Origin: Giardia intestinalis
Taxonomy: Eukaryota
Length of the DNA: 64,000 bases
Assembly (NCBI GenBank): GCA_000002435.2
Contig: CM018793.1
Reading direction: 5' to 3' (one strand)
The position numbers and the translations under genes are program-made. Of this stretch, positions 7,006 through 64,000 are shown one piece after another. Under the pieces are notes generated by a model. It had not been told where the DNA came from. It ran no database searches and worked only from the letters and a program-made list of their open reading frames with translations. Within the stretch, counting starts at the first letter, position 1. Each line of letters opens with the position of its first letter.

Positions 7006-7111
7006 CAGACCTCCAATGTTTAATGGAAATTGTCATAAAACTAAACCGGTGCGAACAAAAACTCCGCACAGAGTAGGCTCAGCACCATACTCATAAAGAT
7101 TGAGACTAGAG

Positions 7112-41001: not shown

Positions 41002-41811
41002 ATGGGCTCTGGGGCAATGACGGCGGAGACGCGCGCCTCCGTTCTGCTCGAGCTCGCGAAGCAGGTCGTCGCTGCCCGGCGGCTGGAGGAGACGGCCGAG
41101 AGCCTCGCGCGGCGGCCGCTGCTCCTCCACCGGCACGTGCTCCGGACGGCCATCGACTGGAAGAAGATCGCCCGCGCCCTGTCCGAGGACCGGAGCAGGA
41201 TCTACCACTGGTACCGCGAGACGCACTCGCGGAGCATCCTCAACGTGAAGATGACCGGCGAGGACCGCAGGGCCATCAAGGCGATGATCATCGCCGGGGT
41301 CAGGGACCGGAGCATCCTGGGCCCGGACTTCTACCGCAGGGTCCACGAGCGCTTCGGGGCGAAGTATCCGCGCCAGGAGCTGCGGATGACGTACAACAAC
41401 GCGCTCCGCACCCAGGACGTCCGCGCCGCCCTGGAGGAGCACGGGGTGGTGCTGCCGCGCCGCACATACGGCCCGAGGGCGGCCAAGCAGGAGGAGGAGG
41501 CATCTCCTGTGGCGGCCACTCCCCCGCCCCCCTGCGTTTTTGGTTGCGCCGCGCCTCCGCTGGTGCCGCCCGTCGGGGGGCCGGTCTTTGTGGCCCCGGG
41601 CGCGGTCTCTGCGCTTCTGCCCCCGCACGCGCCGGGATGCCTCGTCCTCGCCCTCCCACCCGGGGTCGTTTCTGGGCCCGGCGTCCTCCCGCTCCAGACG
41701 GGCCAGGGTCTCCTTGGGCCGCCCGTTGCATTCGCATGCGTGCCATGCTTCCCCCCTGCGGGCTACGGGGGCGTGCCTGGGTGCGCCGATACATACCCCA
41801 GCAAGGGCTGA
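41002..41811 (+). CDS. Extremely GC3-biased ORF. The N-terminal 160 aa are globular with a possible Myb/SANT-like helix-turn-helix (IDWKKIARALSEDRSRIYHWYRETH). The C-terminal tail is Pro/Gly/Val-rich and low-complexity.
   Basis: ATG start. GC3 is above 90% across the first 160 codons. The opposite-strand ORFs are Arg/Pro/Gly-rich, which is typical of antisense to GC-rich coding sequence. The C-terminal third may be non-coding read-through in GC-rich DNA. Confidence 0.35.
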   Translation: MGSGAMTAETRASVLLELAKQVVAARRLEETAESLARRPLLLHRHVLRTAIDWKKIARALSEDRSRIYHWYRETHSRSILNVKMTGEDRRAIKAMIIAGVRDRSILGPDFYRRVHERFGAKYPRQELRMTYNNALRTQDVRAALEEHGVVLPRRTYGPRAAKQEEEASPVAATPPPPCVFGCAAPPLVPPVGGPVFVAPGAVSALLPPHAPGCLVLALPPGVVSGPGVLPLQTGQGLLGPPVAFACVPCFPPAGYGGVPGCADTYPSKG

Positions 41812-45775: not shown

Positions 45776-46534
45776 CACGGGAGTGTCCTAGTTGAGTTGT
45801 AAGTTGATGTGATGGCTCGGTGATCCAGTTTGAGCGACTGTCTGCGAATAGTACAGCCAGAGTGAATCCCTTTGTCAGATAATATGGTATTTAGAATCGG
45901 TGGTGGCTCGATACGACCAGCTGTTCAGGTCTCCTCGTCAAGACAGGCGACCCCTGTACCATATGGATGTGTATGGAGGCAATGTAAGAAAGGCGGGACT
46001 CATACGTGTCTACATTGGAGAGCACAGTAATCACAAGGTGGCAAAGAGAGAGCGTGCAGTAGAAGACTCGTGCAAAGGTTGTGCTGCCCAGAGAATCGGG
46101 ATTTAATTATGCCGGCTCACAGACACAGCCGATCATCCCTTCGCACCAGTGCTGCAGCGGTCGCCTCTGCCACCCTCATCGTTATAGAGTTGCGCCGGCA
46201 ATACTTTGAACACTTTATGTCTGACCAGCTACTCCGCAGAGTGCTTCGTGGATGCCTGTTCTGGGCTACGAGAGTTACGTCGTATCGCCCTCTTGTGGAC
46301 CATGGCGCACCACCAGCAGTTGACGTGTGGTGTTCTCGACTCTGATCGCAGTGGGTAACAAGATAGGTACCGTCCGACGCCCCCTCAGGGCCACCGTCGA
46401 GCGATTACGCGTTCTCCGTCGAGTTCATTTTGCGAATTAAAATGCCCCGCCCCTCCCTCCCTCCTCGGTCTCCAGATCTGCCTGTGTGACACATCACCCG
46501 TCGAGCACCAGGATGGAGAGCAGGGGCGCGCTGA

Positions 46535-47006
46535 TCAGCACAGGTCCGTGACACAGGAGGCTTCCATGGAGTGGTTCCATTTACAAGCTGGGCCCAGTGC
46601 AATGAGCCGGATCAAGAGAAGGACAACGACAACAGGTATGTCTGCGTGAACGGCTGTGGATCAGACAGCACCGGGAAGTGCGTCCCCACGAGCAACTGTC
46701 CTTCCCAGAACACGGGCTGCTCGAGCTATGATGTAGACAGCGAGTGCCTCTCGTACTCGAATAGCGCCAACAGCGTTCAGCCAAATAAGTGGTCGTGCGT
46801 CCCAGGCTGCCGGACAGGTGGAGTCCTTTGCGCCTTTCTGCACGTGCATGCGAGGATACAGCCTCAAAAATGACGACTGCACCCCTCAGGCCAGGAAGGC
46901 CGGCTCCACGACGGCCATCGTCACCGTCCTCGCCCTGTGGTCCTTGCTCTTGTGTGCTGGTTTGTCCTGCGGCGACAGCAGGGATCGAAGGGGATCTCGA
47001 CAGTAG
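46535..47006 (+). pseudogene. Frameshifted fragment of a cysteine-rich EGF-like/VSP-like type-I surface protein.
   Basis: Frame 2 encodes NGCGSDSTGKCVPTSNCPSQNTGCSSYDVDSECL…SCVPGCRT. Around 46820 it shifts to frame 0, which encodes FCTCMRGYSLKNDDCTP (an EGF-like CxCxxGYxLxxDxC) followed by the hydrophobic stretch AIVTVLALWSLLLCAGLSC and a short basic tail. There is no ATG in the upstream frame. Confidence 0.35.
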
Positions 47007-47978
47007 AGACCAGGAGGCTCATGGCAATGATAGGTTTTGACTCTACAGCTGCGCGAACCAGTTTATAATGAGTGAATACTTAGGATCTGTTGAATCCGTA
47101 ACCCTCTCAGGCTGGTGCCTGGTTCCTGAATTACTAGCTCAGCAGACTCTGCTCAAGTGATAGTTCACCTTGCTTCGCTACGATGGGCGTGTCAGTTGCT
47201 ATCCAGGTAGGTCCTTCGAGACGAGCAACCACGTTAGACATCCCCATTCAGCTGACTCCAATGATTCAGATACTGCAGTTCTGGCAGAAGAGAAAGCGCG
47301 GCAGAGGAGCCAGCACCCAACCTCCTGCAGTTGCAGTAGGCAGGCTACACAAAATAATGCGTCCGTGATTGTACACTGGCTGCTGACCATCTGGCACCAC
47401 AGGTGCACTGCGGTCCATGAGCAGAATGGTAGGCCGGGCGTCTCCTCCGCGCCAACCAGGGATCGATGTGGGGGTCCATGGACACATGCTACAGTTCAGG
47501 AGGACGCATGGCGAGCGCACCCCGACAGCAGGACCGATGGTCCACTCCACGAGGAGGCGAGGAGGAATCCAAGTCGACACTCGAGGCTATGACACATACG
47601 ATCTTCATCATGGACACCAGCACCGAGCGACCCTGGACTGCACGGCCGGGAGAACTGCGTCCTCAAGGAGCCTGAGTGAAGAGATTGAAGGCCTAGACCG
47701 ATATCACGCCAGATTAAGCCGTAGTATTCAGAGCGAGAAGGCACGAGAATCTTCTTTTTCGCGGAACTACGGCGTCCAGATTCCGAAGTTTGGACTCTGG
47801 ATTCTGGACAGTGAAAAAGGATGCCATCTAGTGTTACAGTGATGGCTTGTTTAATTGACAACCTACTTGGACAGTAGCTGCCAAGCCTGCCGCATTAACT
47901 AGCTGCTACGTTTAGTTTTCTAGATTGGATTGTCAATCCAGTCTTCAAATAGTTTCAAAATCTGTTATTTCAAAAATA

Positions 47979-50900
47979 ATGTACCCAGTGCTCCGGCTGT
48001 ACCTCAAGACGGCCAGGGTCCATCTTTGTCTCTACATCTGCATGATTGTCATGCCGGTCGTTGTGATGGCCGCTGTCGCCCTCTTCTTCTCGTTCGAGGA
48101 TAGACTGCAAAGCCCTAGCAGCGGCCTAGGCGAAGGGACTCTCCCGCGCCTCCCGTTGTGCAGGGACCTGCCTGGTTGCACGAGCCAGACCGTGTACCTT
48201 GCATTCTCCCCCGACACGATCGAGGCACGCCGGGTCGTTGACAGACTCGTCCAACAGAACGGATTAGAGTCGGAGCGGATTGTTGCCGTAAGGGACCGCG
48301 CAACGATGCAGAGGCTTGTGGCCGGGAAGAATCTCGGCCCGAGCTTTGTCGATGACGTGATTGCGGCCAACCTGGGAGAGACGGTGCGGGGGCACCTCCT
48401 AGGCGCCGATGGCTCCCTTGCTTCGATCCTCACCCCGCGGAAGGTCCTTGCAGACAGGGATGTCGTTACAGAGATGCTCGACACAGCGTACGGGCTTGAT
48501 GACAGAACCCTGGATGCGTTCGATGACGAGTGGGCCGCGAGCATGGGACCGGCCGACAGCGTCTTCCTCGCGCTCGACCTAAACATCTCAAACCGGGAAG
48601 CGTCAGACATCCCGCAGGCCGTCCAGTACTCACTCTGGTACAGCCAGGAGATGATGGCCCGGTACGCTGTCAAACACCCTAGTCCACGGACAAGGTCCTC
48701 GGCGCCTAACTCACACGCCATGTCGTATGTGTGGAGCCCGGCGTCCTTCAGCATTTTCGAGGCGATTCACAACGCCCTGACGGAAACCTTTATCGACAAA
48801 ACCATTTCGTACAGCCTAGGAGAGTATCCGTCGCAAGGCTCGACCACCACCCTTGCCGGGATGCAGGCGTATATGATTCTCCAGCTTTCTATCTTCCTTG
48901 AGTGCATCCTGACCCTCATCTTCGCGGCGCACTTTCGCGGGCCCTTTCAGACCACGCTCCGCCGATTGGGTGTCTCGGAGTTCTGCATGTACGGGCTCAC
49001 GTTCGGCACACTTTTGATCGCCAACCTCTTGGCATACGGACTTCTCTTTGGTGCTGGCTCGCTCTTCAAGCTGTTCCCCTTCTCAAGCTACACTCCTTCT
49101 CTTAACGCCCTTGTCAGCATCACCTTCGCCCTCATCACCACCGCCTCCGTGCTGCTCCTGCACATGTTCTTCTACAACACGTCGGTGGCAATTGCCTTTG
49201 GGACGGTGGCCCTGATTCTGCTCGTGGCATTTCCCTTCTTGATCCTCCTCGAGGAGCCTAGCTTCCCTACAATTTGGACGCAGCTCGTCGTCCCAACCTG
49301 GCTAACAAAGGTCTTCTACGTCCTTTTTCCTCCCTTGGGGCTCGTTGCCATCTGCGACATGCTGGTCGCTTTAAGACCAGAACGTACCAGTGCTGAGCTT
49401 GTTGTACCGACCTACAGTCAATATGGGTTTGAGATTCTATTTAGTGATATTAACAATTACCATTCTAATCGATACGTATGTTCAGGAACTGTTAGTTTAG
49501 GCACAAGCGGATGTACCTTCCAACTTCCTTACCTTGGATCTCTTGTCGTCACGTCCCTGGTCCAGAGCATCCTAGCTCTTCCGCTATTAACTCTGGTTCT
49601 CCTATTCTGCAAACACGAGCCAGGCTCACAAGGGCTTCCCCTCGGCTTCCTTTGCAGCCGCAAGTTCTACCGTACAAGGCGCCCCAAGGACAACCCGGAG
49701 TTCCCCTTTCTGTTTGTCTCAGGGCTTCGGAAGACATACCGTAAGGCAAAGAGATGCACGGTCGTCAAGGAGGAGGCGCTGTGCGGGCTGGACTTGCACC
49801 TTAAGCAGGGAGAAGTCACGGGCCTCGTCGCGACAAGCGGCGGCGGAAAGTCCACAGCCCTGGGGATCATGGCTGGCGAGCTGGCGCCCTCTGGCGGGCA
49901 GTGCGCAGGGCTCGGACACGATCTCCTCTGCCCGTACACCGCACGGTCCCTGCGGGGGTTCATCTCGCTCTGTCCCCAGGAGTGGAACAACCTCTGGATC
50001 AACCTCACTGTCAGGGAGAACGTTCTTCTGTGCGCAGAGATCCGGGCCAGGGTCACGGGCCGCCTCGGCGAGCTCCAGCACAGAAACGGGTCTCTCGACG
50101 GATACGTCGACGAACTCCTGAAGCGCCTCGGGTTGCACGACCACGCGCACAAGCAGGCGTCTGCCCTGTCTGGGGGGATGCTTCGTCGCCTGGCCCTTGC
50201 AAACGCAACGGCGGGAGGTCCGCGGCTGATACTTCTCGACGAGATTACGGTGGGCGTGGACCCGATCCTGAAGCGCCAGATCTGGGCGTACGTTCGCGCA
50301 CTGGTCACAGAGGGCGCCGCAGCAGTCCTGTCCTCCCACGACGCCAACGAGATAGCAGAGCTAGCCACTCGCGTTGTCGTGCTCAAGGCCGGTCGGACGC
50401 AGGCCGATGCCCCTGTTGTGCAACTCCTTGAGGAGCATGGAGACTACGTGGTCTCAGTGACGTCAGAAAGCCGCGACGCCATTTCACGAGTAGCGCTGCT
50501 GCTCTCGACGGAGCTAGGGATTCTGCTCGGAGTTGGCGCTAAAGAGCTAGGTGTTACAATGGACCCACGGCGTGCCAGCATATCCATCCCTGCAGCACTA
50601 GTCCCAGATGCACATGCTCTGGCGGGTCTGGTGCAGCATTGCCGCGCCTTCGAGAAACGAGAGGGCGTCCAGGTTGCCGTCTCACGGGCCCGGCTGGAGG
50701 ATGTCTTCGAGCACCTGCTGGATGGCGAAGACGACGCGCAGCCGGAGCCTCTGCGCTCAGTAACTCTGGACGAGGACAGAAAGCCCTCCGTGACGCGCCA
50801 CCTGCTGCTTCTCTTCCTCTCCCTGGACCTTCAAGAGCACTGCAGAAGCTTTGCTTCCATACTTGCTGCGCTGACTGCCCTATTTGTGCTAATTTGGATG

Positions 50901-53450
50901 GGGGTCCGTTATACTCTTACTAGCGTCACAAATATCACTGAGTCAGTAGAGGCAGCGCAACTTACTGAGTGGTCTCTGTCATGCCTTGCTGACTGCATCA
51001 ACGCCAATCCCGGTGCAGACCCTTTGTTGATAGATGCCAATGTCACAATTGAAAACGTAAGCGAGTTTTTGAAAGCCAACCCAGGAGTCGATGCCCTTCA
51101 GGTCATGGAGCGCTGCCTGGTGAAGCGTCCTCGGCGACTCTTCGAGCCAATGCTTCAGTATCCAAATGGATTCCCCGTCTGTCTTAGCTACATGAATCAC
51201 TTGGGCCTCGACACATATCGCTACGATTACTTGACCGTTGGGGATCGTCAGACAGGATCCCTGGGAACCAACGAGACGCAATTCAGTTGGTACTACATTG
51301 GCGTAGTAGGTGACGCTTCGAAGGTCGAGACCTCAGACAGCATATCATTGAGCCTGTCTCTGGACGACCCTCTTATAGCAGGCTCTCCAACGGAAGGGCT
51401 TGACTATTATGTCGCAAACGAACCCCAGCAGATCTCTTTCTCTCCCCAGAACTTTGGGGATGTGTGGAGGAGGGGCGTGGAGGCAGGCCTCAGACACCCC
51501 TTGGACTCCGATGACCTGTTCTCGTTTGTGGCCCCCCGCATGACTGTACCTCAGCATTTTCGCAGTGACACATCTGTGCCTTTGACAGATGCAGAGGATT
51601 ATGCACTTCTGCTTGAGGAGACTATTCTTCGCCAACCCACGGCAAGTGACTTCTTTGAGGGGATTACGTCTACAATTGGCAGCACGTTTATTAAGCCAGA
51701 CTGCTTCGATTCACAGCCGGCTGTACAAGCACGTGTGGTTCGCAGGGTGTTCAGAAGCATCCCTGCGGTTATCTTTCAACCAGGCCAGCACGAGGCAGGC
51801 AGTGCATTGCTTCTCAAGATGTACACTATGCTTCCTCCTCTCGGGCCACAACGCAAGGCCTATCGTGATTGGGTCATTACCTTTACTCCATCAGCAGAGC
51901 GGGCCGATATGCTGGTATCTACCTCGAAATATTTAATCCCTACCTTATTTCAGTATATGAACGAATCTCTTAAGAATGCCGTTGATATTACAAAAGCAGA
52001 TCGTGTCAGATTCACATTCACGACGATTGGGGCGGATGCGATGGCCAAGATGACCGGCGCTCTCTTCCGTCAGCACCTCGTAGAGTCTCTTCGGGACACG
52101 CTTGGTGTAGAGGAGGCGTGGCGCCAAGGCACGGAGTTCACCTATGACGGGTCCGTGATGAGTATCCCTAGGCGGTATCTGAACAGAGATCTCATATTCG
52201 AAACTCCGGGGGCAGCCCTGCAATCGATGGAGATAATGAGTGACTACTACTTAGTGTTCCTCTTGTTGCTAGGAAGCGTCATTGTAGCTGGCCGCGCTGC
52301 CCGGGAGTTTCAGCAGCGCACTGTGACCCTCCTCCGCCTCCACGGAGCCTCTGAAATACGCGTTGTCATGGTTCTTATCCTGTACTTCAGCATCTGGACC
52401 ATCACCCCCACAATACTGATTGCAGCGGCCTTGACAGCACTCTTTAAGGACGCCTTCTTCATCCACGGTCCTGCAGTGGCCGCTGTCGCATATACCTGCC
52501 TGGGAATGATAGCTCTTTCCAGTGTGTTCAATGCAGTCCTAGTGGCCGTGCTCCTTCGTTCTCAGCAGAACGCCATGCTGACCGTGGTTCTCCAGATCCT
52601 CGTCGCTGTCTTTGTCTCCGGCTCTCTCAGGGCCGAGGGAGCAGTGGCCGCCGTCCTGGGCCTTCTGGCTCCTGGTGTGGGGTACATGCCCGTGCTGCGA
52701 AACGCCATAGGACTTAGCCGCATTAGCTGGGGGTCTCTTGCCCTCTCGTTTCTGATATCGCTGCTAGAGGTCTTTGCCTCGCTTGGCGTGCTGCTGCTCA
52801 GGAAGATTCGGGTCCGCCAGAGGATCAAAGACAGGACCCCTGACGGATCAGATTCAGAGGAGTCTGGACTGCTGAGTGGGCTATCAGAAACAACCTCCAT
52901 GACCAGCCTCAACTTAGAAAAGAAGGATGCGCCCCCTGGGCACCCTGACAACCACCTCAGCGTGCAGGGGATCTCGCACAGCTATCGCAAGGGCGCCCAC
53001 GCGCTCGACAACGCCTCGTTTTCGGTGCCGGCGGGGAGCATCTTCGCCCTGCTCGGCGCCAACGGGGCCGGGAAGTCCACGATGATGCACGCCTTGACAG
53101 GAGTCCTGAGGCCGACTGCTGGAAGCGCTCTCTGCGTGCGTAACGAGGCCGACAGCAGACGGGTTGACCTCTTCCGGCGGGTCCACCACAGCCGGTACAT
53201 CACAGTTGTTCCCCAGCACGACCTTTACTGGCCGCAGCTCACGGTCCGCTACCACGTGAAAATCATCCGAGGGCTCACGCCCAGGGCACTTCGGCCAAAC
53301 ATCAAGTCGACGGACCACGTGCTCCGCCTGGTGGGGCTGGCCGAGCACGCCGACAAGAGGGCCGGTGCGCTCTCGGGCGGGATGCGGCGGCGCCTCACGC
53401 TCGCGATGGTCCTAGTCTCGTCTCCCTCGCTCATCTGCCTCGACGAGTAG
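47979..53450 (+). CDS. ABCA-subfamily ABC transporter (TMD-NBD-TMD-NBD), 3'-truncated inside NBD2.
   Basis: The first ATG is at 47979 (the track ORF began at a TTG at 47925). TM1 is followed by a large extracellular domain and a TM bundle. NBD1 has GGGKST, LSGGMLRRLALA and ILLDE. TMD2 follows. NBD2 has LLGANGAGKST, LSGGMRRRLTLA and the Walker B LICLDE, and then stops at 53450 with no D-loop or H-loop. Confidence 0.8.
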   Translation: MYPVLRLYLKTARVHLCLYICMIVMPVVVMAAVALFFSFEDRLQSPSSGLGEGTLPRLPLCRDLPGCTSQTVYLAFSPDTIEARRVVDRLVQQNGLESERIVAVRDRATMQRLVAGKNLGPSFVDDVIAANLGETVRGHLLGADGSLASILTPRKVLADRDVVTEMLDTAYGLDDRTLDAFDDEWAASMGPADSVFLALDLNISNREASDIPQAVQYSLWYSQEMMARYAVKHPSPRTRSSAPNSHAMSYVWSPASFSIFEAIHNALTETFIDKTISYSLGEYPSQGSTTTLAGMQAYMILQLSIFLECILTLIFAAHFRGPFQTTLRRLGVSEFCMYGLTFGTLLIANLLAYGLLFGAGSLFKLFPFSSYTPSLNALVSITFALITTASVLLLHMFFYNTSVAIAFGTVALILLVAFPFLILLEEPSFPTIWTQLVVPTWLTKVFYVLFPPLGLVAICDMLVALRPERTSAELVVPTYSQYGFEILFSDINNYHSNRYVCSGTVSLGTSGCTFQLPYLGSLVVTSLVQSILALPLLTLVLLFCKHEPGSQGLPLGFLCSRKFYRTRRPKDNPEFPFLFVSGLRKTYRKAKRCTVVKEEALCGLDLHLKQGEVTGLVATSGGGKSTALGIMAGELAPSGGQCAGLGHDLLCPYTARSLRGFISLCPQEWNNLWINLTVRENVLLCAEIRARVTGRLGELQHRNGSLDGYVDELLKRLGLHDHAHKQASALSGGMLRRLALANATAGGPRLILLDEITVGVDPILKRQIWAYVRALVTEGAAAVLSSHDANEIAELATRVVVLKAGRTQADAPVVQLLEEHGDYVVSVTSESRDAISRVALLLSTELGILLGVGAKELGVTMDPRRASISIPAALVPDAHALAGLVQHCRAFEKREGVQVAVSRARLEDVFEHLLDGEDDAQPEPLRSVTLDEDRKPSVTRHLLLLFLSLDLQEHCRSFASILAALTALFVLIWMGVRYTLTSVTNITESVEAAQLTEWSLSCLADCINANPGADPLLIDANVTIENVSEFLKANPGVDALQVMERCLVKRPRRLFEPMLQYPNGFPVCLSYMNHLGLDTYRYDYLTVGDRQTGSLGTNETQFSWYYIGVVGDASKVETSDSISLSLSLDDPLIAGSPTEGLDYYVANEPQQISFSPQNFGDVWRRGVEAGLRHPLDSDDLFSFVAPRMTVPQHFRSDTSVPLTDAEDYALLLEETILRQPTASDFFEGITSTIGSTFIKPDCFDSQPAVQARVVRRVFRSIPAVIFQPGQHEAGSALLLKMYTMLPPLGPQRKAYRDWVITFTPSAERADMLVSTSKYLIPTLFQYMNESLKNAVDITKADRVRFTFTTIGADAMAKMTGALFRQHLVESLRDTLGVEEAWRQGTEFTYDGSVMSIPRRYLNRDLIFETPGAALQSMEIMSDYYLVFLLLLGSVIVAGRAAREFQQRTVTLLRLHGASEIRVVMVLILYFSIWTITPTILIAAALTALFKDAFFIHGPAVAAVAYTCLGMIALSSVFNAVLVAVLLRSQQNAMLTVVLQILVAVFVSGSLRAEGAVAAVLGLLAPGVGYMPVLRNAIGLSRISWGSLALSFLISLLEVFASLGVLLLRKIRVRQRIKDRTPDGSDSEESGLLSGLSETTSMTSLNLEKKDAPPGHPDNHLSVQGISHSYRKGAHALDNASFSVPAGSIFALLGANGAGKSTMMHALTGVLRPTAGSALCVRNEADSRRVDLFRRVHHSRYITVVPQHDLYWPQLTVRYHVKIIRGLTPRALRPNIKSTDHVLRLVGLAEHADKRAGALSGGMRRRLTLAMVLVSSPSLICLDE

Positions 53451-55585
53451 GGTAGACAGAGGCGGTTTACTACGTAATATGCGCGCAAGGCGGTAAGGAC
53501 ATTGGAGGGGAGGCAGCCTCACGACGGAGGGGAAGGGCCCGCCCGGGGCGCCCAGCCCCCGTGCCCGCGTGGTCTCGCGGCGGGGGCGCGGCCAGGGGGG
53601 CCTTCTCCCCAGCTCCAGGGGTATGCTCCTGTGCGCGGGGGCGCGCGGGTCACGGCCAGGGGGGCCAGGCGCTGCAGGCTGTGTGTTAGTGGATCCGCGG
53701 AGAGGGCGGCCTGCGGTGTTAGGGCATAGCGGCATGCAGACATACAGGCCCGAGGGAGGCGTGCCATGTGAGGGGGAGTGGTAGGGGGGCATCCTGGAGG
53801 ATCGATGGCGAAGGTGCCGATCCTCCTCCGTGGCGGCGCAGGAGTCCTGGATGAGACGTGATGGCGTGGGTGCTTGGCCTTTGCTCGAGCGCATGGTGTG
53901 GGTGGACCGATTCCCCGCATCCTCCAGGCCCTGCGGGGGCGGTCTTCAGGCCCAAATTCTGGATTTTGGAAAAAATAAAATCCACCATGAGCGTCGCCCC
54001 GGCGCAACCAGCAGGCCCTGGGCCGCGGAAACAAAGAGACAAATAGCCCGTGGACCAAGAAGAGTGCAGGCCTGTTTGGGGGGTAGAAGACGACGCGTCG
54101 GGCCAGAAACCCAGGGATCCAGGATTCCAGTCAAAGGCAGGCCTACAGACCGGCCCACTGCACCGCGCACATACGCGAGGCACCATAATGCTGTTGCACT
54201 AAAAAGGGAAGCGCGAGCCCAGAGAACCGGCGAGGAAACAGCTTGGGGGTGGAGGGGTTTGGGGAGCCCAAATTCTGGCCCATCGACACACGGGGTGAGC
54301 TGTGGCCGGCCCAAGGGGACAGCGTGGACAGGTGTGTGCAGTGCCCCATATAAGGATGCACGATGGGGATCGGCCGGGGCCACCGATTCGGGGGACAAGG
54401 GAGACGCGTCCGGACTGTCCCCGGGAGTCCGTGAGAAGGGAGGGTGCGGACCGTGCACCATAGCTAGCCCATCCACACGTGTCGTGCTATTCCAGAATGG
54501 TGGCTCACCGGAGGCGTCTGGCCAAGATGGCGGGGGCAGCGGGGCGGTGGTCCCATACGGCCCAGGAGGCCGACAGAAGGTCACGCCTGAGAGAGCAGAC
54601 TGACGGCTTAGGAGGTGGTGTGGGGAGGCACGGGTGATGGAGGAGGCCCCCTAAGGGCGGGTCCAGGCTGATGACGCCAGCTCAGGACAGACCGGCAGAG
54701 CGCCGTGGAGCCATATTCTTCTGTGCGTGCCAGTCCCATCTGTGACAAGCAACCCATGTGGTGCCAGCGCTGGTGGGAGGCATGTGGCCCAGGTATGGAG
54801 CGAAACCTGGGGGCCCGGCCGGGACTGTCAACAGCCGTCACCGCGACTCAGCGGAGACCGAGCAGGAGAGGTAGAGAGGAGCAGGGGAGAATGGGCCAGG
54901 CAAACACAGGCGCATGAGGGATGGCCCATTGGAGGGCAAGCACCTGGAGGCCAGGGCCAGAGTGACCAGGTTCCCTGTACCGGGGCGCCCAGAGTGGGTA
55001 CATGAGGGGGGGCAGTGGGGAAGCGATGCACCCGAGGGCTCAGTAGCACATAGCACCCGGCCATCCTCTCCAGGGGGCACCGGGGCGCTGCAGCAGAGGA
55101 TGGCCCGAGCCAGGGCTGTGCCGCCCCGGACCGGAGGCGGCCACTGGCGGGCAGTTCCATGGGGGGATCAGCACGGCGCGGTGCGATGGTACGAATGACA
55201 CACGGGGCTAGCCTCTTCCCCCAGCACCAGCTCGCCAGACTCAGCACCCAAGGACCGCCGCTGCCCGGGAGGACAGACAGACGAACACCGGGCTGCGGCG
55301 TGGGCAGATGACGAGTCCCATCGAGGAAGTGCCCAAACGTAGGCAGGGCGGGTGTCTGGCCATCCAGGGGGGCGTCCGGCCTGGCCCGGCCTGGTCGAGT
55401 GTGTATGGCATCGCGGCTAGGCATCTATCGCACCGTGTCTGGACGTGATGCACACCCGAATGATAGGGGCAAGAGGCCTCGGGTGCGAGCGAGGAGTACC
55501 AGGGGAGACAGCTCGGCACGCAGGCCCAGGGGTCCGTTCGCGCTGTGGGGCAGCCGACAGCGGGCAGGGTGCCCAAGCATGACCA

Positions 55586-58500
55586 CTAGCGCCCCGTGTC
55601 GATGCGTTTGAAGGGGTAGAAGCCATCAGGGGCATGCGGCTTGGGAGGACCGACGCGCTTGAAGAAGGACGGCAGGGCCTTGTGCACCGGCTCGGGTGCT
55701 CCTGCATCGTCGGGGCTGTCGTCATCCAGTGGAGGCGGGGAGGGGGCCCTTGAGCACATGAAGGGGTCTGGGCGTTCGTTTGCATCCGGCTGTGCGGGGT
55801 GATCGGTGCCCCAGGTGATCGAGGAGGAGACCTCAGCAGGACCCCAGGGAGGAGGGACTGCCGCATCAGGATGCTGGCTGAGATCGGCCATGATCTCTAC
55901 GGAGGGCGACGTGCCAGGGCTCCACATGGCAGGGGTGAGGGGAGTAGGAGGAGTAGCCCGAGCCTCGTTGGGAGCCGGTTCCGGCAGGGATACTGCAGGG
56001 GCGGGGCGGTGCACCGGCCTCTCCACTCGCAGCCCAGCGTACAGGAGGGCCGACAGCCTGTAGTGCCAGAGGATGACCTGCGCCGCCTCCTGCATGAAGC
56101 GCGCAAGGTCCACGCCGGCGAACGCGAGTCCGGCCGCAGACAGGTGGTGCAGGACGCCGTCAGCACCGACCACGACGGGGAGGATGTGGGCCGCCCGCCC
56201 CTGGAGCACGAGGGGGCGATACTTGGCGGCCTTCAGGGCATAGGACCGCTCCAGCCTCCACGGGACAGTGACCACCAAGTCCCCGAAGCCCCCACCGATG
56301 ACAAGGTCAGGCTGGAGGTGATCCACTGGGATCGTGGGATTGCGCACAACAGACCCAGCGCGACCGCGGGAGCACGCGAGCAGGGCGTCCAGAATCTTGT
56401 CGTGCCGCGCCACGTGAATCCCGTTAATGGCCTTGCACACCAGATGGTGCCTGGGAAGGAAGGGCTGCTTGCAGTGGCAGCACGTGCCCATCGGCCGGCC
56501 CCGCTGGTACCTCCCCGCCAAGCAGTCCCCTATGAACAGGACCTGCGTGTTGTCCAGGGGTGCGCAGCCCAGCAATGCGAGCGGCAGGAAGGATCGGAGC
56601 GCGGCCGTGTCCTGCAGGCGCTTCTTCCTCAGCTCGCGGAAGACGCCCGCCTTCATGTCCTGGCGCTGCCTGTGCATCTCGTCGTAGTAGTGATGGGGCA
56701 GCACCAGTCCGAGGCCGTACTTCGCGCGGGGCGTCAGAGCAAGGGTCTTCGCAAGGGGTTCGGGGATCTCCAGAAGGGTCGCGACCTCCTCCACTATCTG
56801 CGCATCGACGTCGGCATAGGGGGACGGGCCCGGGTAGTCGTCAACAAGGGGTCCATAGTTAACTGCAGGGACGACGCAGGCAGACAGGAGCCTGAGGCGG
56901 TCGTGGAGTGAGAGACCCGAAGCACGGAGGACGGCGAGATGCTCGTGGAGCCGGCGGGCCGATGTCTGCGCGAGGTTGAAGGAGGAGTGCTTGAGCACGC
57001 GGGTGCCCATGAAGGAGATCGCCCCGGCCTGGGTCGAGGAGCACTTCGAGAGCTCGACCGTGAGCCCTATGCGGGAGAGGGCAGACTGCGCGTCACTCTT
57101 CACGGTATCTATGGGAATCGCCTCCTCTGACGCAATGACGAGGTCGTCGGCGTATGCAACGACCTTGTACTGGCCGAGGTACGTCTCCACCGGCCAGACA
57201 AGGCTCTGGCAGAACATCGCCATGGACAGCGGGTCCCCCTGTGGCACGCCCGCTGGGACCGCGGGGAGGTCCGAGGAGTGCCGAGCCGCGAGGAACGACT
57301 CAATGTACGCGACGGTCGGCTGGACCACCCCTGCCCGGCGGAGCGCAAAGAGGATGACGGAATGCGGGACGCTGTTGAAGGCATTCCGCACATCCACCGT
57401 GAGCAGGTGGTGTGTCCTCTTCAGCTCCTCGGCCGCGCGGATCGCCTTCATCTGGGCGAGGTGCTCAAAGGCCAGCTGCCACGCCGGGAGCTTGCGGAGC
57501 GCGGGAGTCCGACGCAGGAGCAAGCGGTGGAAGGCGACCAGAAGCGTCTCCTGCACTGCGATAGGGCGCCATCGGCCGCCAGACTTGGGCAGAAGCTTCA
57601 GCCTGAACTCGCACAGGGGCTGGAGCTGGGCCCAGTTCCTGCTGGAGAAGAGGGTCGTCAGGACAGAGGTGAAGAGCTCCGCAGCCCCGGCGGCCCCACA
57701 AAGGTGCAGGAGGTGAGGCTTCCCCAGCCCAGAGGGTCCGGCCGCGACAGGCCTCATCGCCTGCAGCTCCTTCAGCAGCGCCTTGGCCGTTATCTTGGGC
57801 GACGGGCCGAGCACGTGATGGACGGGGGGCAGAGAGACAGGCATGGGGCGCGGGTGGAGCTCATGGACAATCGCTTCCCGCTCCTTGCCCTGGGGCTCGG
57901 GGACCCTGGCGGCAGAGGACGTCTCGCTCAACAGCGCCTGCCATGCCCGGCCGAGCAGCCCCTTCCGGAGAAGCGACTGCGCCGGGGGGAGCCGTCCAGA
58001 GCCCTCCATGCGGCGGCACGTCGAGAGGAAGCGCGCTAGGGCCTCTACAGGAGGAAGGCGCCCCGCCATCTCTGTGAATACGTCAGTGAGGAGGCGAAGC
58101 AGCTCAGGGGACGGGCTGCCACTAGGCACCCCGATGCGCTCGGGGACTGTGGCGTCGAGCGGGAGGTAGTGGCCGAGCCTGGCGATATGGGCCTTCAGCC
58201 CCCTCTCCGTTTTGTATCGGGCCCGGCACATGCTGCATGCATACGGGAACACAGGGTCCGGCGTTGGCGAGGGAGAGGGCTCGGCGGCTGCAGGTGGAGG
58301 GGCAGACCCCGACAGCGGAGAAGGGCTGCGCGACGGAGAAGGTGAACCGGGAGGCGGATGGTGCATCCCGATGTGGACATCGATCGCCGCAGAGTCAGGC
58401 AGCACCTCTCCGCAGCGCTCGCAGACAGTCGTACGGCCCCCAGGAGCAGGCAGGTCTGCGCCCCGGGCCTCCTGCTCGTCCGTGATGGACGGGGAGTTGT

Positions 58501-58915
58501 CGTGGCCCAGGTCGTATGGGAGGCCGTCGTCGGGAATCGGGAGGGGCTCCTGGCCACAGGGCAGAAGGTCGTTCGACAGGCAGGGAGGAGAGGCGTCCCG
58601 GGCCACCGAGGCCCCGGAGCCCTGTAAGCCATGGACAGGAGAAGACTCATTGGGAGAGTTGTCCGTGGCGGAACGGCTGTTGCCAGGCCCAGGCTGGGGG
58701 GATGGGGGCCCGTGGGAGCCGCAGAGGGGCTCGCAAGAGGAAGGCCGGGCCATGGCGGTCGTCGAGGCATCGTTGCCGTCACCCAGCGTCATAGGATCGG
58801 GAGTGCCCCTAGGTAGGGGCCTGTGGGAGTCGGTTGGAGCGTGGTTGGGAGGCTCTGGGCCTGAGGAAGCCCCGATCTCCGTGGTTCCCGAAGGCGCGGA
58901 AAGGGCGGAACGCAT
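55586..58915 (-). CDS. Retrotransposon ORF: N-terminal C2H2 zinc fingers, reverse transcriptase, CCHC knuckle and REL-endonuclease-like domain.
   Basis: C2H2 fingers: CERCGEVLPDSAAIDVHIGMHH and CSMCRARYKTERGLKAHIARLGH. RT blocks: WRPIAVQETLL, LTVDVRNAFNSVPH, GVPQGDPLSMAMF and VAYADDLVIAS (YxDD). CHCKQPF…H zinc knuckle. RHDKILD…PDLVI is REL-endo (PD-(D/E)xK-like). Confidence 0.85.
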   Translation of the reverse strand: MRSALSAPSGTTEIGASSGPEPPNHAPTDSHRPLPRGTPDPMTLGDGNDASTTAMARPSSCEPLCGSHGPPSPQPGPGNSRSATDNSPNESSPVHGLQGSGASVARDASPPCLSNDLLPCGQEPLPIPDDGLPYDLGHDNSPSITDEQEARGADLPAPGGRTTVCERCGEVLPDSAAIDVHIGMHHPPPGSPSPSRSPSPLSGSAPPPAAAEPSPSPTPDPVFPYACSMCRARYKTERGLKAHIARLGHYLPLDATVPERIGVPSGSPSPELLRLLTDVFTEMAGRLPPVEALARFLSTCRRMEGSGRLPPAQSLLRKGLLGRAWQALLSETSSAARVPEPQGKEREAIVHELHPRPMPVSLPPVHHVLGPSPKITAKALLKELQAMRPVAAGPSGLGKPHLLHLCGAAGAAELFTSVLTTLFSSRNWAQLQPLCEFRLKLLPKSGGRWRPIAVQETLLVAFHRLLLRRTPALRKLPAWQLAFEHLAQMKAIRAAEELKRTHHLLTVDVRNAFNSVPHSVILFALRRAGVVQPTVAYIESFLAARHSSDLPAVPAGVPQGDPLSMAMFCQSLVWPVETYLGQYKVVAYADDLVIASEEAIPIDTVKSDAQSALSRIGLTVELSKCSSTQAGAISFMGTRVLKHSSFNLAQTSARRLHEHLAVLRASGLSLHDRLRLLSACVVPAVNYGPLVDDYPGPSPYADVDAQIVEEVATLLEIPEPLAKTLALTPRAKYGLGLVLPHHYYDEMHRQRQDMKAGVFRELRKKRLQDTAALRSFLPLALLGCAPLDNTQVLFIGDCLAGRYQRGRPMGTCCHCKQPFLPRHHLVCKAINGIHVARHDKILDALLACSRGRAGSVVRNPTIPVDHLQPDLVIGGGFGDLVVTVPWRLERSYALKAAKYRPLVLQGRAAHILPVVVGADGVLHHLSAAGLAFAGVDLARFMQEAAQVILWHYRLSALLYAGLRVERPVHRPAPAVSLPEPAPNEARATPPTPLTPAMWSPGTSPSVEIMADLSQHPDAAVPPPWGPAEVSSSITWGTDHPAQPDANERPDPFMCSRAPSPPPLDDDSPDDAGAPEPVHKALPSFFKRVGPPKPHAPDGFYPFKRIDTGR

Positions 58916-58917
58916 GG

Positions 58918-58933
58918 TTTTTTTTTTTTTTTT
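58918..58933 (-). repeat. Poly(A) tail (A16) of copy B at the inter-element junction.
   Basis: T16 on the plus strand lies immediately distal to the copy A ATG (…AAAAAAAAAAAAAAAACCATG… on the minus strand). Confidence 0.85.
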
Positions 58934-61900
58934 AGGGGCGGTTTACTACGTAATATGCGCGCAAGGCGGTAAGGACATTGGAGGGGAGGCAGCCTCACGA
59001 CGGAGGGGAAGGGCCCGCCCGGGGCGCCCAGCCCCCGTGCCCGCGTGGTCTCGCGGCGGGGGCGCGGCCAGGGGGGCCTTCTCCCCAGCTCCAGGGGTAT
59101 GCTCCTGTGCGCGGGGGCGCGCGGGTCACGGCCAGGGGGGCCAGGCGCTGCAGGCTGTGTGTTAGTGGATCCGCGGAGAGGGCGGCCTGCGGTGTTAGGG
59201 CATAGCGGCATGCAGACATACAGGCCCGAGGGAGGCGTGCCATGTGAGGGGGAGTGGTAGGGGGGCATCCTGGAGGATCGATGGCGAAGGTGCCGATCCT
59301 CCTCCGTGGCGGCGCAGGAGTCCTGGATGAGACGTGATGGCGTGGGTGCTTGGCCTTTGCTCGAGCGCATGGTGTGGGTGGACCGATTCCCCGCATCCTC
59401 CAGGCCCTGCGGGGGCGGTCTTCAGGCCCAAATTCTGGATTTTGGAAAAAATAAAATCCACCATGAGCGTCGCCCCGGCGCAACCAGCAGGCCCTGGGCC
59501 GCGGAAACAAAGAGACAAATAGCCCGTGGACCAAGAAGAGTGCAGGCCTGTTTGGGGGGTAGAAGACGACGCGTCGGGCCAGAAACCCAGGGATCCAGGA
59601 TTCCAGTCAAAGGCAGGCCTACAGACCGGCCCACTGCACCGCGCACATACGCGAGGCACCATAATGCTGTTGCACTAAAAAGGGAAGCGCGAGCCCAGAG
59701 AACCGGCGAGGAAACAGCTTGGGGGTGGAGGGGTTTGGGGAGCCCAAATTCTGGCCCATCGACACACGGGGTGAGCTGTGGCCGGCCCAAGGGGACAGCG
59801 TGGACAGGTGTGTGCAGTGCCCCATATAAGGATGCACGATGGGGATCGGCCGGGGCCACCGATTCGGGGGACAAGGGAGACGCGTCCGGACTGTCCCCGG
59901 GAGTCCGTGAGAAGGGAGGGTGCGGACCGTGCGCCATAGCTAGCCCATCCACACGTGTCGTGCTATTCCAGAATGGTGGCTCACCGGAGGCGTCTGGCCA
60001 AGATGGCGGGGGCAGCGGGGCGGTGGTCCCATACGGCCCAGGAGGCCGACAGAAGGTCACGCCTGAGAGAGCAGACTGACGGCTTAGGAGGTGGTGTGGG
60101 GAGGCACGGGTGATGGAGGAGGCCCCCTAAGGGCGGGTCCAGGCTGATGACGCCAGCTCAGGACAGACCGGCAGAGCGCCGTGGAGCCATATTCTTCTGT
60201 GCGTGCCAGTCCCATCTGTGACAAGCAACCCATGTGGTGCCAGCGCTGGTGGGAGGCATGTGGCCCAGGTATGGAGCGAAACCTGGGGGCCCGGCCGGGA
60301 CTGTCAACAGCCGTCACCGCGACTCAGCGGAGACCGAGCAGGAGAGGTAGAGAGGAGCAGGGGAGAATGGGCCAGGCAAACACAGGCGCATGAGGGATGG
60401 CCCATTGGAGGGCAAGCACCTGGAGGCCAGGGCCAGAGTGACCAGGTTCCCTGTACCGGGGCGCCCAGAGTGGGTACATGAGGGGGGGCAGTGGGGAAGC
60501 GATGCACCCGAGGGCTCAGTAGCACATAGCACCCGGCCATCCTCTCCAGGGGGCACCGGGGCGCTGCAGCAGAGGATGGCCCGAGCCAGGGCTGTGCCGC
60601 CCCGGACCGGAGGCGGCCACTGGCGGGCAGTTCCATGGGGGGATCAGCACGGCGCGGTGCGATGGTACGAATGACACACGGGGCTAGCCTCTTCCCCCAG
60701 CACCAGCTCGCCAGACTCAGCACCCAAGGACCGCCGCTGCCCGGGAGGACAGACAGACGAACACCGGGCTGCGGCGTGGGCAGATGACGAGTCCCATCGA
60801 GGAAGTGCCCAAACGTAGGCAGGGCGGGTGTCTGGCCATCCAGGGGGGCGTCCGGCCTGGCCCGGCCTGGTCGAGTGTGTATGGCATCGCGGCTAGGCAT
60901 CTATCGCACCGTGTCTGGACGTGATGCACACCCGAATGATAGGGGCAAGAGGCCTCGGGTGCGAGCGAGGAGTACCAGGGGAGACAGCTCGGCACGCAGG
61001 CCCAGGGGTCCGTTCGCGCTGTGGGGCAGCCGACAGCGGGCAGGGTGCCCAAGCATGACCACTAGCGCCCCGTGTCGATGCGTTTGAAGGGGTAGAAGCC
61101 ATCAGGGGCATGCGGCTTGGGAGGACCGACGCGCTTGAAGAAGGACGGCAGGGCCTTGTGCACCGGCTCGGGTGCTCCTGCATCGTCGGGGCTGTCGTCA
61201 TCCAGTGGAGGCGGGGAGGGGGCCCTTGAGCACATGAAGGGGTCTGGGCGTTCGTTTGCATCCGGCTGTGCGGGGTGATCGGTGCCCCAGGTGATCGAGG
61301 AGGAGACCTCAGCAGGACCCCAGGGAGGAGGGACTGCCGCATCAGGATGCTGGCTGAGATCGGCCATGATCTCTACGGAGGGCGACGTGCCAGGGCTCCA
61401 CATGGCAGGGGTGAGGGGAGTAGGAGGAGTAGCCCGAGCCTCGTTGGGAGCCGGTTCCGGCAGGGATACTGCAGGGGCGGGGCGGTGCACCGGCCTCTCC
61501 ACTCGCAGCCCAGCGTACAGGAGGGCCGACAGCCTGTAGTGCCAGAGGATGACCTGCGCCGCCTCCTGCATGAAGCGCGCAAGGTCCACGCCGGCGAACG
61601 CGAGTCCGGCCGCAGACAGGTGGTGCAGGACGCCGTCAGCACCGACCACGACGGGGAGGATGTGGGCCGCCCGCCCCTGGAGCACGAGGGGGCGATACTT
61701 GGCGGCCTTCAGGGCATAGGACCGCTCCAGCCTCCACGGGACAGTGACCACCAAGTCCCCGAAGCCCCCACCGATGACAAGGTCAGGCTGGAGGTGATCC
61801 ACTGGGATCGTGGGATTGCGCACAACAGACCCAGCGCGACCGCGGGAGCACGCGAGCAGGGCGTCCAGAATCTTGTCGTGCCGCGCCACGTGAATCCCGT

Positions 61901-64000
61901 TAATGGCCTTGCACACCAGATGGTGCCTGGGAAGGAAGGGCTGCTTGCAGTGGCAGCACGTGCCCATCGGCCGGCCCCGCTGGTACCTCCCCGCCAAGCA
62001 GTCCCCTATGAACAGGACCTGCGTGTTGTCCAGGGGTGCGCAGCCCAGCAATGCGAGCGGCAGGAAGGATCGGAGCGCGGCCGTGTCCTGCAGGCGCTTC
62101 TTCCTCAGCTCGCGGAAGACGCCCGCCTTCATGTCCTGGCGCTGCCTGTGCATCTCGTCGTAGTAGTGATGGGGCAGCACCAGTCCGAGGCCGTACTTCG
62201 CGCGGGGCGTCAGAGCAAGGGTCTTCGCAAGGGGTTCGGGGATCTCCAGAAGGGTCGCGACCTCCTCCACTATCTGCGCATCGACGTCGGCATAGGGGGA
62301 CGGGCCCGGGTAGTCGTCAACAAGGGGTCCATAGTTAACTGCAGGGACGACGCAGGCAGACAGGAGCCTGAGGCGGTCGTGGAGTGAGAGACCCGAAGCA
62401 CGGAGGACGGCGAGATGCTCGTGGAGCCGGCGGGCCGATGTCTGCGCGAGGTTGAAGGAGGAGTGCTTGAGCACGCGGGTGCCCATGAAGGAGATCGCCC
62501 CGGCCTGGGTCGAGGAGCACTTCGAGAGCTCGACCGTGAGCCCTATGCGGGAGAGGGCAGACTGCGCGTCACTCTTCACGGTATCTATGGGAATCGCCTC
62601 CTCTGACGCAATGACGAGGTCGTCGGCGTATGCAACGACCTTGTACTGGCCGAGGTACGTCTCCACCGGCCAGACAAGGCTCTGGCAGAACATCGCCATG
62701 GACAGCGGGTCCCCCTGTGGCACGCCCGCTGGGACCGCGGGGAGGTCCGAGGAGTGCCGAGCCGCGAGGAACGACTCAATGTACGCGACGGTCGGCTGGA
62801 CCACCCCTGCCCGGCGGAGCGCAAAGAGGATGACGGAATGCGGGACGCTGTTGAAGGCATTCCGCACATCCACGTGAGCAGGTGGTGTGTCCTCTTCAGC
62901 TCCTCGGCCGCGCGGATCGCCTTCATCTGGGCGAGGTGCTCAAGGCCAGCTGCCACGCCGGGAGCTTGCGGAGCGCGGGAGTCCGACGCAGGAGCAAGCG
63001 GTGGAAGGCGACCAGAAGCGTCTCCTGCACTGCGATAGGGCGCCATCGGCCGCCAGACTTGGGCAGAAGCTTCAGCCTGAACTCGCACAGGGGCTGGAGC
63101 TGGGCCCAGTTCCTGCTGGAGAAGAGGGTCGTCAGGACAGAGGTGAAGAGCTCCGCAGCCCCGGCGGCCCCACAAGGTGCAGGAGGTGAGGCTTCCCCAG
63201 CCCAGAGGGTCCGGCCGCGACAGGCCTCATCGCCTGCAGCTCCTTCAGCAGCGCCTTGGCCGTTATCTTGGGCGACGGGCCGAGCACGTGATGGACGGGG
63301 GGCAGAGAGACAGGCATGGGGCGCGGGTGGAGCTCATGGACAATCGCTTCCCGCTCCTTGCCTGGGCTCGGGGACCCTGGCGGCAGAGGACGTCTCGCTC
63401 AACAGCGCCTGCCATGCCCGGCCGAGCAGCCCCTTCCGGAGAAGCGACTGCGCCGGGGGAGCCGTCCAGAGCCTCCATGCGGCGGCACGTCGAGAGGAAG
63501 CGCGCTAGGGCCTCTACAGGAGGAAGGCGCCCCGCCATCTCTGTGAATACGTCAGTGAGGAGGCGAAGCAGCTCAGGGGACGGGCTGCCACTAGGCACCC
63601 CGATGCGCTCGGGGACTGTGGCGTCGAGCGGGAGGTAGTGGCCGAGCCTGGCGATATGGGCCTTCAGCCCCTCTCCGTTTTGTATCGGGCCCGGCACATG
63701 CTGCATGCATACGGGAACACAGGGGCCGGCGTTGCGAGGGAGAGGGCTCGGCGGCTGCAGGTGGAGGGGCAGACCCCGACAGCGGAGAAGGGCTGCGCGA
63801 CGGAGAAGGTGAACCGGGAGGCGGATGGTGCATCCCGATGTGGACATCGATCGCCGCAGAGTCAGGCAGCACCTCTCCGCAGCGCTCGCAGACACCGACG
63901 ACGGCCCATACGACCTGGGCCACGACAACTCACCCGTCCATCACCGGACGACAGGAGGCCCGGGCGGAAGACCTGCTGCTGCCCTGGGGCGGCCGTACGA
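58934..64000 (-). mobile_element. Second tandem copy (copy B) of the same retrotransposon. Its 5' end runs off the window. The 3' half is above 99% identical to copy A; the 5' half carries indels.
   Basis: ORF-track entries 58978-62873 duplicate those at 53502-57400 with a 5,476-bp offset. The copy ends in a poly(A) (T16 on the plus strand, 58918-58933) that directly abuts copy A. Confidence 0.8.
61062..63928 (-). pseudogene. RT/REL-endo ORF of copy B, interrupted by several single-base deletions.
   Basis: The 603-aa C-terminal part is identical to copy A. Upstream of 62873 the frame is broken at least four times, each a 1-nt loss in a homopolymer run (ccaccgtg to ccacgtg, caaaggc to caaggc, acaaagg to acaagg, gccctgggg to gcctggg). 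Confidence 0.6.

Follow-up and report, generated by a model that had tools for sequence, protein, structure and literature searches.

A GilM (Genie 1) retrotransposon array in place of the end of an ABC transporter gene in Giardia

The window analysed here is a 64,000-nucleotide stretch of the Giardia intestinalis (G. duodenalis) WB genome (assembly GCA_000002435.2, contig CM018793.1), the last 10.5 kb of which are occupied by an array of GilM (Genie 1), a retrotransposon without long terminal repeats (non-LTR). The array replaces the end of an ABCA-type ABC transporter gene and is separated from that gene by TAGGGTAG alone, 8 nucleotides that match the telomere repeat of Giardia, (TAGGG)n (PMC7000408). 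The window probably represents the proximal edge of a subtelomeric GilM array that sits on a chromosome break within the ABC transporter gene, a break that would have been healed with telomere repeats, which in turn primed the arrival of the element.

The gene-array junction and the layout of the array

The open reading frame (ORF) of the ABC transporter gene stops within the Walker B motif of the second ATP-binding domain (…LICLDE*), and its stop codon is the TAG of the junction TAGGG. The predicted protein is 100% identical to a 1,823-residue protein annotated as 'ABC transporter [G. duodenalis]' on the 4.0-Mb WB contig. Its orthologue in P15 has 1,979 residues; the alignment of the WB protein ends at P15 residue 1823, leaving 156 codons missing, and the last 316 residues of the WB protein are 88% identical to the orthologue. 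The DNA of WB and P15 is 83% identical over a stretch that starts at 46593 and stops exactly at 53447. Past this breakpoint P15 reads GCGACAACGGGC (…LDEATTGFSG…), where WB reads TAGGGTAG followed by GilM, and further downstream P15 carries a variant-specific surface protein (VSP) gene and a second ABCA gene, both of which are absent from the window. Neither a second flank of the ABC gene nor a target-site duplication is present in the window, and since gene homology stops at 53447 without a second flank, the pattern is that of a terminal deletion and not of an insertion. When window positions 43000-53447 were compared with P15 (L001, ACVC01000189.1), synteny was limited to 46366-53447, upstream of which P15 has VSP genes and WB an MFS transporter.

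On the + strand the proximal junction reads …CTCGACGAG-TAGGGTAG-ACAGAGGCGGTTTAC…, and the 40 nucleotides (nt) that span the passage from ABC gene to GilM are CTCGACGAGTAGGGTAGACAGAGGCGGTTTACTACGTAAT. The match of TAGGGTAG to the telomere repeat is in register, with a probability by chance of about 5 x 4^-8 in any phase, and the 3′ end of the first GilM copy (53456-53461) adjoins it without poly(A). No (TAGGG)n of two or more units was found in the window.

The array within the window consists of two minus-strand copies of GilM arranged head-to-tail, the proximal copy A and the distal copy B (Table 1). A repeat search covered 53458-63894 with 8 colinear direct-repeat blocks (53458-58427 against 58934-63894), the start-to-start spacing of which passes from 5,476 to 5,467 bp, and the copies form a single BLASTN alignment of 4,984 columns at 99.68% identity; no further GilM copy or fragment was found elsewhere in the window by BLASTN or by protein comparison. 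The GC content of the last 10.5 kb is 66-67%, compared with 44-57% for most of the first 53 kb, and the + strand of copy A is G-rich (2,084 G vs 1,570 C). Homopolymers of at least 10 bases are represented in the window by a single T16 (58918-58933) which, read on the minus strand, is the A16 tail of copy B abutting the CC-ATG of copy A, so that the inter-copy junction on that strand is …GCGCGCATATTACGTAGTAAACCGCCCCT-A16-CC-ATGCGT…. The 3′ ends of GilM face the genes and the 5′ ends face outward, as published for GilM and GilT (PMC10999387; PMC5537684), and an array at the end of a 142-kb contig of GS likewise has its 5′ ends outward. Along the outward-running + strand the inter-copy junction presents T16 and then the antisense element, the order that is expected from cDNA synthesis primed by a chromosomal 3′ end.

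An earlier note on this DNA, made from the sequence alone, had described at least two head-to-tail minus-strand copies of a 5.48-kb GC-rich long interspersed nuclear element (LINE), each with a 2.1-kb 3′ untranslated region (UTR) and an A16 tail facing the gene-rich side, and had taken the array to mark a chromosome end and not an ordinary insertion. The spacing, identity, composition and orientation given above agree with that description, as does the measured 3′ UTR of copy A. Of the two copies, A is indeed full length, but B is incomplete, being colinear with A only to about 63894 and inverted thereafter, and the attribution of an A16 tail to each copy was mistaken, since the single tract belongs to copy B and copy A has no poly(A). 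Despite this error, the poly(A)-less junction strengthens the interpretation as a chromosome end, which is also favoured, indirectly, by the stop in P15 homology at 53447, the lack of a second flank and the 8-nt telomere repeat. WB arrays of GilM have been placed at chromosome ends or assembly gaps (PMC7000408; PMC11169602).

Table 1. Coordinates of the truncated gene, the GilM copies and their parts in the window
Feature	Position	Strand	Remarks
ABCA-type ABC transporter gene, truncated	47979..53450	+	Pfam ABC_tran twice, last match reaching the final residue
TAGGGTAG, 8 nt	53448..53455	+	1.6 units of the telomere repeat (TAGGG)n, between ABC gene and copy A
GilM copy A, full length, ~5,462 nt	53456..58917	-	5′ end CC-ATG; 3′ end …AGTAAACCGCCTCTGT without poly(A)
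3′ UTR of copy A, 2,128 nt	53456..55585	-	
Conserved 3′-terminal block	53458..53668	-	ends with ATATTACGTAGTAAAC; 80-87% identical between families
ORF of copy A, 1,109 residues	55586..58915	-	intact, single
Restriction-like endonuclease (predicted), copy A ORF	56219-56407	-	
CCHC motif, copy A ORF	56435-56482	-	
Reverse transcriptase (predicted), copy A ORF	56999-57589	-	
C2H2 fingers (predicted), copy A ORF	58361-58423, 58169-58237	-	
A16	58918..58933	-	tail of distal copy B, 2 nt upstream of copy A ATG
GilM copy B, 3′ 4,961 nt	58934..63894	-	3′ UTR and most of ORF
Inverted segment, ~106 nt	63895..64000	.	reverse complement of copy-A equivalent 58428-58535, ~87% identity, indels

Junctions in related sequences and the origin of the array

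Element-to-element junctions were collected from WB, P15 (two families and the GilM orthologue), GS and three metagenome or SRA assemblies. All nine, from six lineages, take the form AGTAAAY-N6-9-A(6-16)-C(C/T)(C/A)?-ATG. Poly(A) is absent from each of the four junctions between an element 3′ end and other DNA, namely those of the window, P15 L002, P15 L012 and DH L013. The resulting rule, by which an element has no poly(A) where it lies on non-element DNA or telomere repeats (4/4) and has poly(A) followed within 2-3 nt by ATG where full-length elements meet (9/9), may not have been spelled out before.

The closest parallel to the window is found in DH (L013, AHGT01000152.1, 5469-6413), where a GilM copy of 95% nucleotide identity ends …AGTAAATTCC-(CCCTA)4 without poly(A). 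The (CCCTA)4 (5493-5512 of L013) is followed by a member of a second Gil family with 92% identity to P15 L002; this member is missing ~580 nt at its 5′ end. The arrangement looks like the trace left by erosion of a chromosome end into an element, capping by telomerase and the subsequent arrival of a GilM copy for which the telomeric repeats served as primer, and TAGGGTAG in the window is read in the same way. In P15 L012 (ACVC01000609.1, ~5600-6535) the GilM orthologue, of 88% nucleotide identity, ends AGTAAATCCCCTC, and what follows is lower-GC unique sequence without poly(A) or telomere repeats and then the 3′ UTR of another Gil family; judged by this composite sequence, the locus is a mosaic subtelomere.

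Two further observations were made on the related loci. In GS (L004, AHHH01000009.1), positions 4793-7250 hold a 2.4-kb unit between two elements that encode reverse transcriptase (RT); it starts with A6-CT-ATG, ends with AGTAAAT-A7 and encodes no RT, and possible explanations are internal deletion of a copy, a non-autonomous partner element and collapse of the assembly. Loci L009, L010 and L011 (ENA ERZ28628728 and ERZ27317019; Logan SRR21529641), from metagenome or SRA assemblies, hold Gil-family elements that have 66-73% GC and ORFs 56-63% identical to that of GilM; these elements follow the same junction grammar, and undescribed Giardia lineages are their presumed source. The JGI metagenome contigs were also scanned for the GilM 3′-end motif: the first scan gave no match, and the four contigs returned by a second scan were unrelated and of low GC, and were rejected as chance matches.

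The preferred reading can be laid out in four steps. A chromosome break, or erosion of an end, would have reached into the ABC transporter gene, and telomerase would have added TAGGG repeats to the broken end. GilM RNA would then have been reverse-transcribed from the telomeric 3′ end, with the G-strand pairing to C-rich sequence at the RNA 3′ terminus, ahead of the tail, and pairing at that position would mean that no poly(A) was copied at the proximal junction. The WB GilM RNA would end …CCGCCCCU-A(n), in which CCCUA could pair with a TAGGG 3′ end and thereby skip the tail. Further full-length copies could subsequently have joined the outward 5′ end via their poly(A) tails, and/or recombination could have extended and homogenised the array.

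Several observations weigh against such an origin. The telomere repeat at the proximal junction is only 8 nt long, the window stops inside copy B before any chromosome terminus is reached, and the end of copy B is itself of poor quality and partly inverted. At every element-to-element junction (9/9) the element is full length, without 5′ erosion, which would be unexpected for independent additions to a free, eroding end. The endonuclease is apparently intact, with all of its catalytic residues invariant, and would be needless for pure end-addition. The hexanucleotide GTAGAC (+ strand) is common to the proximal flanks of WB and P15 L002, so it could be a specific target or an inherited flank instead of the outcome of de novo healing. 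Finally, the first 3.9 kb of copies A and B are one substitution apart, which recent duplication by recombination would explain equally well.

The conserved endonuclease, the precise full-length junctions and the GTAGAC beside the element end in both flanks would suit site-specific, endonuclease-dependent insertion, the model for Genie 1 that is attributed to Burke et al. 2002, in which the restriction-like endonuclease (RLE) nicks a defined sequence, either a chromosomal repeat or the 5′ edge of a resident copy, and target-primed reverse transcription builds the array with no need of a free end. The CCHC as well as the RLE residues are invariant in 12 family members, and the nearest structural relatives are the site-specific R2 elements. 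However, the 3′ flanks of the elements differ (CC-ATG internally, telomere repeats in WB and DH, other DNA in P15 L012) and no common target is evident among them, the window offers neither a second flank nor a target-site duplication, and the DH element that lies on (CCCTA)4 added to a 5′-truncated element bears the signature of a healed end. Site-specific insertion is regarded as an unlikely source of the array.

Recombination could have founded the array as well as extended it, if break-induced replication or ectopic recombination from another subtelomere had copied an existing junction and array that unequal sister-chromatid exchange then altered. Besides the near-identity of copies A and B, it would accommodate the presence of an identical protein at at least four loci on three WB contigs, which implies homogenisation between ends, and the variation of array copy number between homologues (PMC2875222; PMC7000408). 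Furthermore, the short TAGGGTAGAC retained at the junction, part of which P15 has too, may have been inherited as a flank. Poly(A) lengths of A15 and A9 within one P15 array nevertheless fit separate reverse-transcription events, albeit with homopolymer errors in the assembly as a possible cause, and the terminus of copy A (CTCTGT without a tail) differs from that of copy B (CCCT followed by A16), so a single unit was not simply duplicated to give both. In the P15 GilM orthologue and at loci L010 and L011, CTCTGT is followed by poly(A). A donor junction, moreover, would still require retrotransposition, and recombination as the origin of the array is given a small but appreciable chance.

The quality of the sequence at the far end of the window bears on whether the array could be interstitial, or an assembly construct (a collapsed or mis-joined repeat at a scaffold gap), with no true chromosome end. 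Between 62872 and 63733 copy B contains seven single-base homopolymer deletions and one 2-base deletion that break its ORF. Such a pattern of homopolymer deletions is a signature of poorly polished long-read sequence, and the WB genome paper reports homopolymer frameshifts and low coverage at chromosome ends (PMC7000408), so the breaks are probably long-read errors near a contig end or gap and not decay of the element. The inverted segment that follows has a 6-nt inverted repeat, ACGGCC/GGCCGT, at its boundaries and runs to the very last base of the window; it is probably an artefact of an assembly end or gap edge. This collapse in quality and the inversion favour the construct, as does the precedent of a WB-C6 Chr5 scaffold piece with ~4 GilM copies that had been mis-joined, although its corrected place, the 3′ end of Chr4, is likewise a chromosome end (PMC11169602). 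Sequence quality is high throughout copy A and over the first 3.9 kb of copy B, and the gene truncation and telomere remnant, themselves in clean sequence, are over 9 kb away from the degraded part; an interstitial or artefactual array is very unlikely.

The element, its transcripts and neighbouring features

The element is called GilM itself, the already known GilM (Genie 1) of G. duodenalis assemblage A (WB), because of complete protein identity, a published unit length of 5,474 bp and exact matches to Genie-1 primers. The ORF is 100% identical over all 1,109 residues to 'putative reverse transcriptase/endonuclease [Giardia duodenalis]' (KAE8301202-204, KAE8302557), the largest of the three WB contigs on which that protein is annotated being 4,018,654 bp, and over 1,068 residues to a 2001 deposit, AAL47180.1, that begins at Met42. 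The latter, from the GilM/GilT era, is presumably the GilM record. GilM and Genie 1 are taken to be one element, in line with the primer matches, and their founding descriptions are reportedly those of Arkhipova & Morrison 2001 and Burke et al. 2002. The unit measured here is 5,476 bp including A16, and it has been stated that 'one copy of GilM is 5,474 bp long' (Xu et al. 2020, PMC7000408). Each copy contains perfect matches (0 mismatches), ~318 bp apart, to the two Genie-1 primers published by Chen et al. 2007 (PMC1950533). The earlier note had proposed a BLAST comparison with GilM, GilT and Genie elements as a family check; the comparisons made here placed the element within the expected family and identified it as GilM, and the intact 1,109-residue ORF proposed there, with C2H2 fingers, an RT with YADD, a CCHC motif and an RLE-like domain, is upheld by the Pfam matches, invariant residues and R2 structure matches described below.

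In Pfam searches RVT_1 was matched at residues 443-639 (E = 3.8e-21) and zf-C2H2_4 at residues 225-246 (E = 1.7e-4, under the curated cut-off). Invariance was judged on a 12-sequence family alignment made up of the GilM ORF and 11 relatives that are 48-63% identical to it. Ligands of two C2H2 fingers (C165/C168/H181/H185 and C227/C230/H243/H249), the YADD motif at 588-591 (Y588-A-D-D591), the CCHC motif (C812/C815/H823-824/C827) and the RLE residues R837, H838, P869, D870, D879, K895, K898 and Y899 are all invariant. Among solved structures, sequence comparison detected R2 retrotransposon proteins and no others, with E = 6e-9 for the RT domain and weak colinear matches across the fingers and the CCHC/endonuclease region. 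An AlphaFold model of the ORF has a core with pLDDT ~60-85 and disordered termini, the CCHC/RLE region being of moderate confidence (pLDDT 45-83), and the top 7 Foldseek matches to the model are all R2 proteins (876-1,137 columns, E 6e-15 to 8e-10). On these alignments and predicted folds, GilM is an RLE-bearing, R2-like non-LTR retrotransposon with predicted fingers, RT, CCHC and PD-(D/E)xK endonuclease. The C-terminal tail (55586-55800, residues ~1050-1109), otherwise disordered and variable, keeps the invariant motifs SRAPSPPPL … EPxxKxLPxIFKRV … FYPFKR across lineages of 48-63% identity.

When GilM is compared with families whose ORF proteins are 55-63% identical to its own, the nucleotide sequences align solely in the ORF core (about 67% identity) and over the last ~200 nt (80-87%). 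A second ORF in the 3′ UTR was rejected, since none of its sense-frame ORFs of at least 60 residues gave a tblastn match in six related loci. The conserved terminal block ends with the motif ATATTACNTAGTAAA and contains, within ATATTACGTAGTAAAC at 53465-53471, a polyadenylation signal of the form AGTRAAY, which in GilM reads AGTAAAC; the Giardia consensus is AGT[A/G]AA[T/C] (PMC1872034). The stop codons of the other window genes have no exact AGTRAAY match within 40 nt. The idea that the conserved 3′ terminus forms a structured RNA found no support, with a minimum free energy z of 0.16 against shuffles, a positive (penalising) covariation term in RNAalifold and compensatory changes in 4 of 33 pairs among 7 sequences. 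A strict G3+N1-7 quadruplex pattern gave 1 motif per strand, and 27 potential quadruplex sequences have been reported with another tool (PMC10088271); the strict count neither reproduces nor contradicts that figure, and the G-richness of the + strand alone stands.

With regard to expression, Giardia genes have AT-rich initiator (Inr) or TATA-like elements, very short 5′ UTRs and bidirectional promoters (PMC1885649), and an A-rich motif has been noted at start codons (PMC7000408). The other genes in the window have AT-rich upstream regions. For GilM the ATG follows 2 nt after A16, and the only AT-rich DNA upstream of it is the neighbouring copy's ATATTACGTAGTAAA motif, about 25-40 nt upstream, together with the A-tract. 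Given the AT-rich initiators and short 5′ UTRs of Giardia, transcription of each copy probably starts in the 3′ end of its distal neighbour, as this arrangement of upstream sequence suggests. A promoter in the neighbour's tail region would account for the antisense transcripts, reports of which are cited in two sources (PMC10999387, PMC1950533). A more elaborate scheme, in which the array was founded by telomere-primed reverse transcription at the healed break and extended within the same reaction by RT jumping from the 5′ end of one GilM RNA to the poly(A) of the next, with the tail and ATATTACNTAGTAAA serving as an AT-rich promoter, is put forward tentatively and has a rather low probability.

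The first 53 kb of the window are densely packed with ordinary Giardia genes, among them NEK kinase/ankyrin, ankyrin-RING, importin-like, IFT-like, MFS transporter and ABC transporter genes. No Rfam family was matched in the window, which means that no ribosomal DNA (rDNA) adjoins the array. An isolated block of 64.7% GC at 40000-42000 contains long overlapping ORFs on both strands (e.g. 41002-41811+ and 40954-41937-); as a candidate GilM relative it was rejected, having no Pfam match and no similarity to the GilM ORF.

Relation to known elements

The element in the window is no different from the GilM/Genie 1 of WB, with which it shares protein, unit length, primer sites, head-to-tail arrays, long 3′ UTR and orientation. 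Reviews describe one-direction head-to-tail arrays between subtelomere and telomere repeats, 5′ truncations that are ascribed to erosion of the ends, exceptionally long 3′ UTRs and a link to telomere repeats (PMC5537684; PMC10999387; PMC10088271), and the WB Chr5 scaffold is reported to carry ~4 GilM copies at its 5′ end, next to the largest gaps in the assembly (PMC7000408). To GilM/Genie 1 as described, the locus adds a poly(A)-less proximal copy that lies on 8 nt of telomere repeat and truncates an ABCA gene. Other Gil lineages, presumably including GilT (Genie 1A), from assemblages A2, B and E and from metagenomes, have in common with it the ORF architecture, the junction grammar AGTAAAY-N6-9-A(n)-CC-ATG, the ~200-nt 3′ terminus and tandem arrays, but their ORFs are 48-63% identical to the window ORF and the bodies of their 3′ UTRs cannot be aligned.

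Beyond Giardia, the R2/RLE group has the same single ORF with N-terminal C2H2 fingers, RT, CCHC and a C-terminal PD-(D/E)xK endonuclease; GilM differs from R2 in having no rDNA target and in possessing a poly(A) tail and signal, a very long 3′ UTR and a telomeric array. RT phylogeny has put GilM and GilT in the CRE clade (PMC10088271), and they have also been placed basal with R2 (PMC12857005). The HeT-A, TART and TAHRE elements of Drosophila, like GilM, form head-to-tail arrays with the poly(A) side facing the centromere and have long 3′ UTRs; in GilM the strand that runs 5′ to 3′ toward the end is G-rich. The promoter of HeT-A lies in the 3′ end of the upstream neighbour, an arrangement equivalent to the one proposed here for GilM. 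Unlike Giardia, which keeps (TAGGG)n and telomerase and has full-length GilM junctions, Drosophila is without telomerase and shows variable 5′ truncation at its junctions; GilM has an RLE, whereas the Drosophila elements have an APE or no endonuclease, and the lineages are unrelated. Bombyx SART/TRAS, Magnaporthe MoTeR and Chlorella Zepp are, like GilM, tied to telomerase-made repeats, against which the GilM 3′ end lies both in the window (53448-53461) and in L013. Those elements are usually spaced by telomere repeats, in contrast to GilM copies, which abut directly through poly(A).

The domain structure, long 3′ UTR, tandem arrangement and telomeric orientation of GilM have been known since 2001-2002 and the WB arrays appear in the 2020 and 2024 genome papers, so the findings contain nothing new about kinds of systems, and their value in that respect is the correct identification of the element from sequence alone. 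The truncation of the ABC gene and the junction rule may already be known as well. The locus itself is a clean, base-resolved terminal deletion in which an ABCA gene that has lost 156 codons is capped by a telomere-repeat remnant and a retrotransposon array. The junction grammar could guide work on how an endonuclease-bearing LINE serves at telomeres alongside telomerase.

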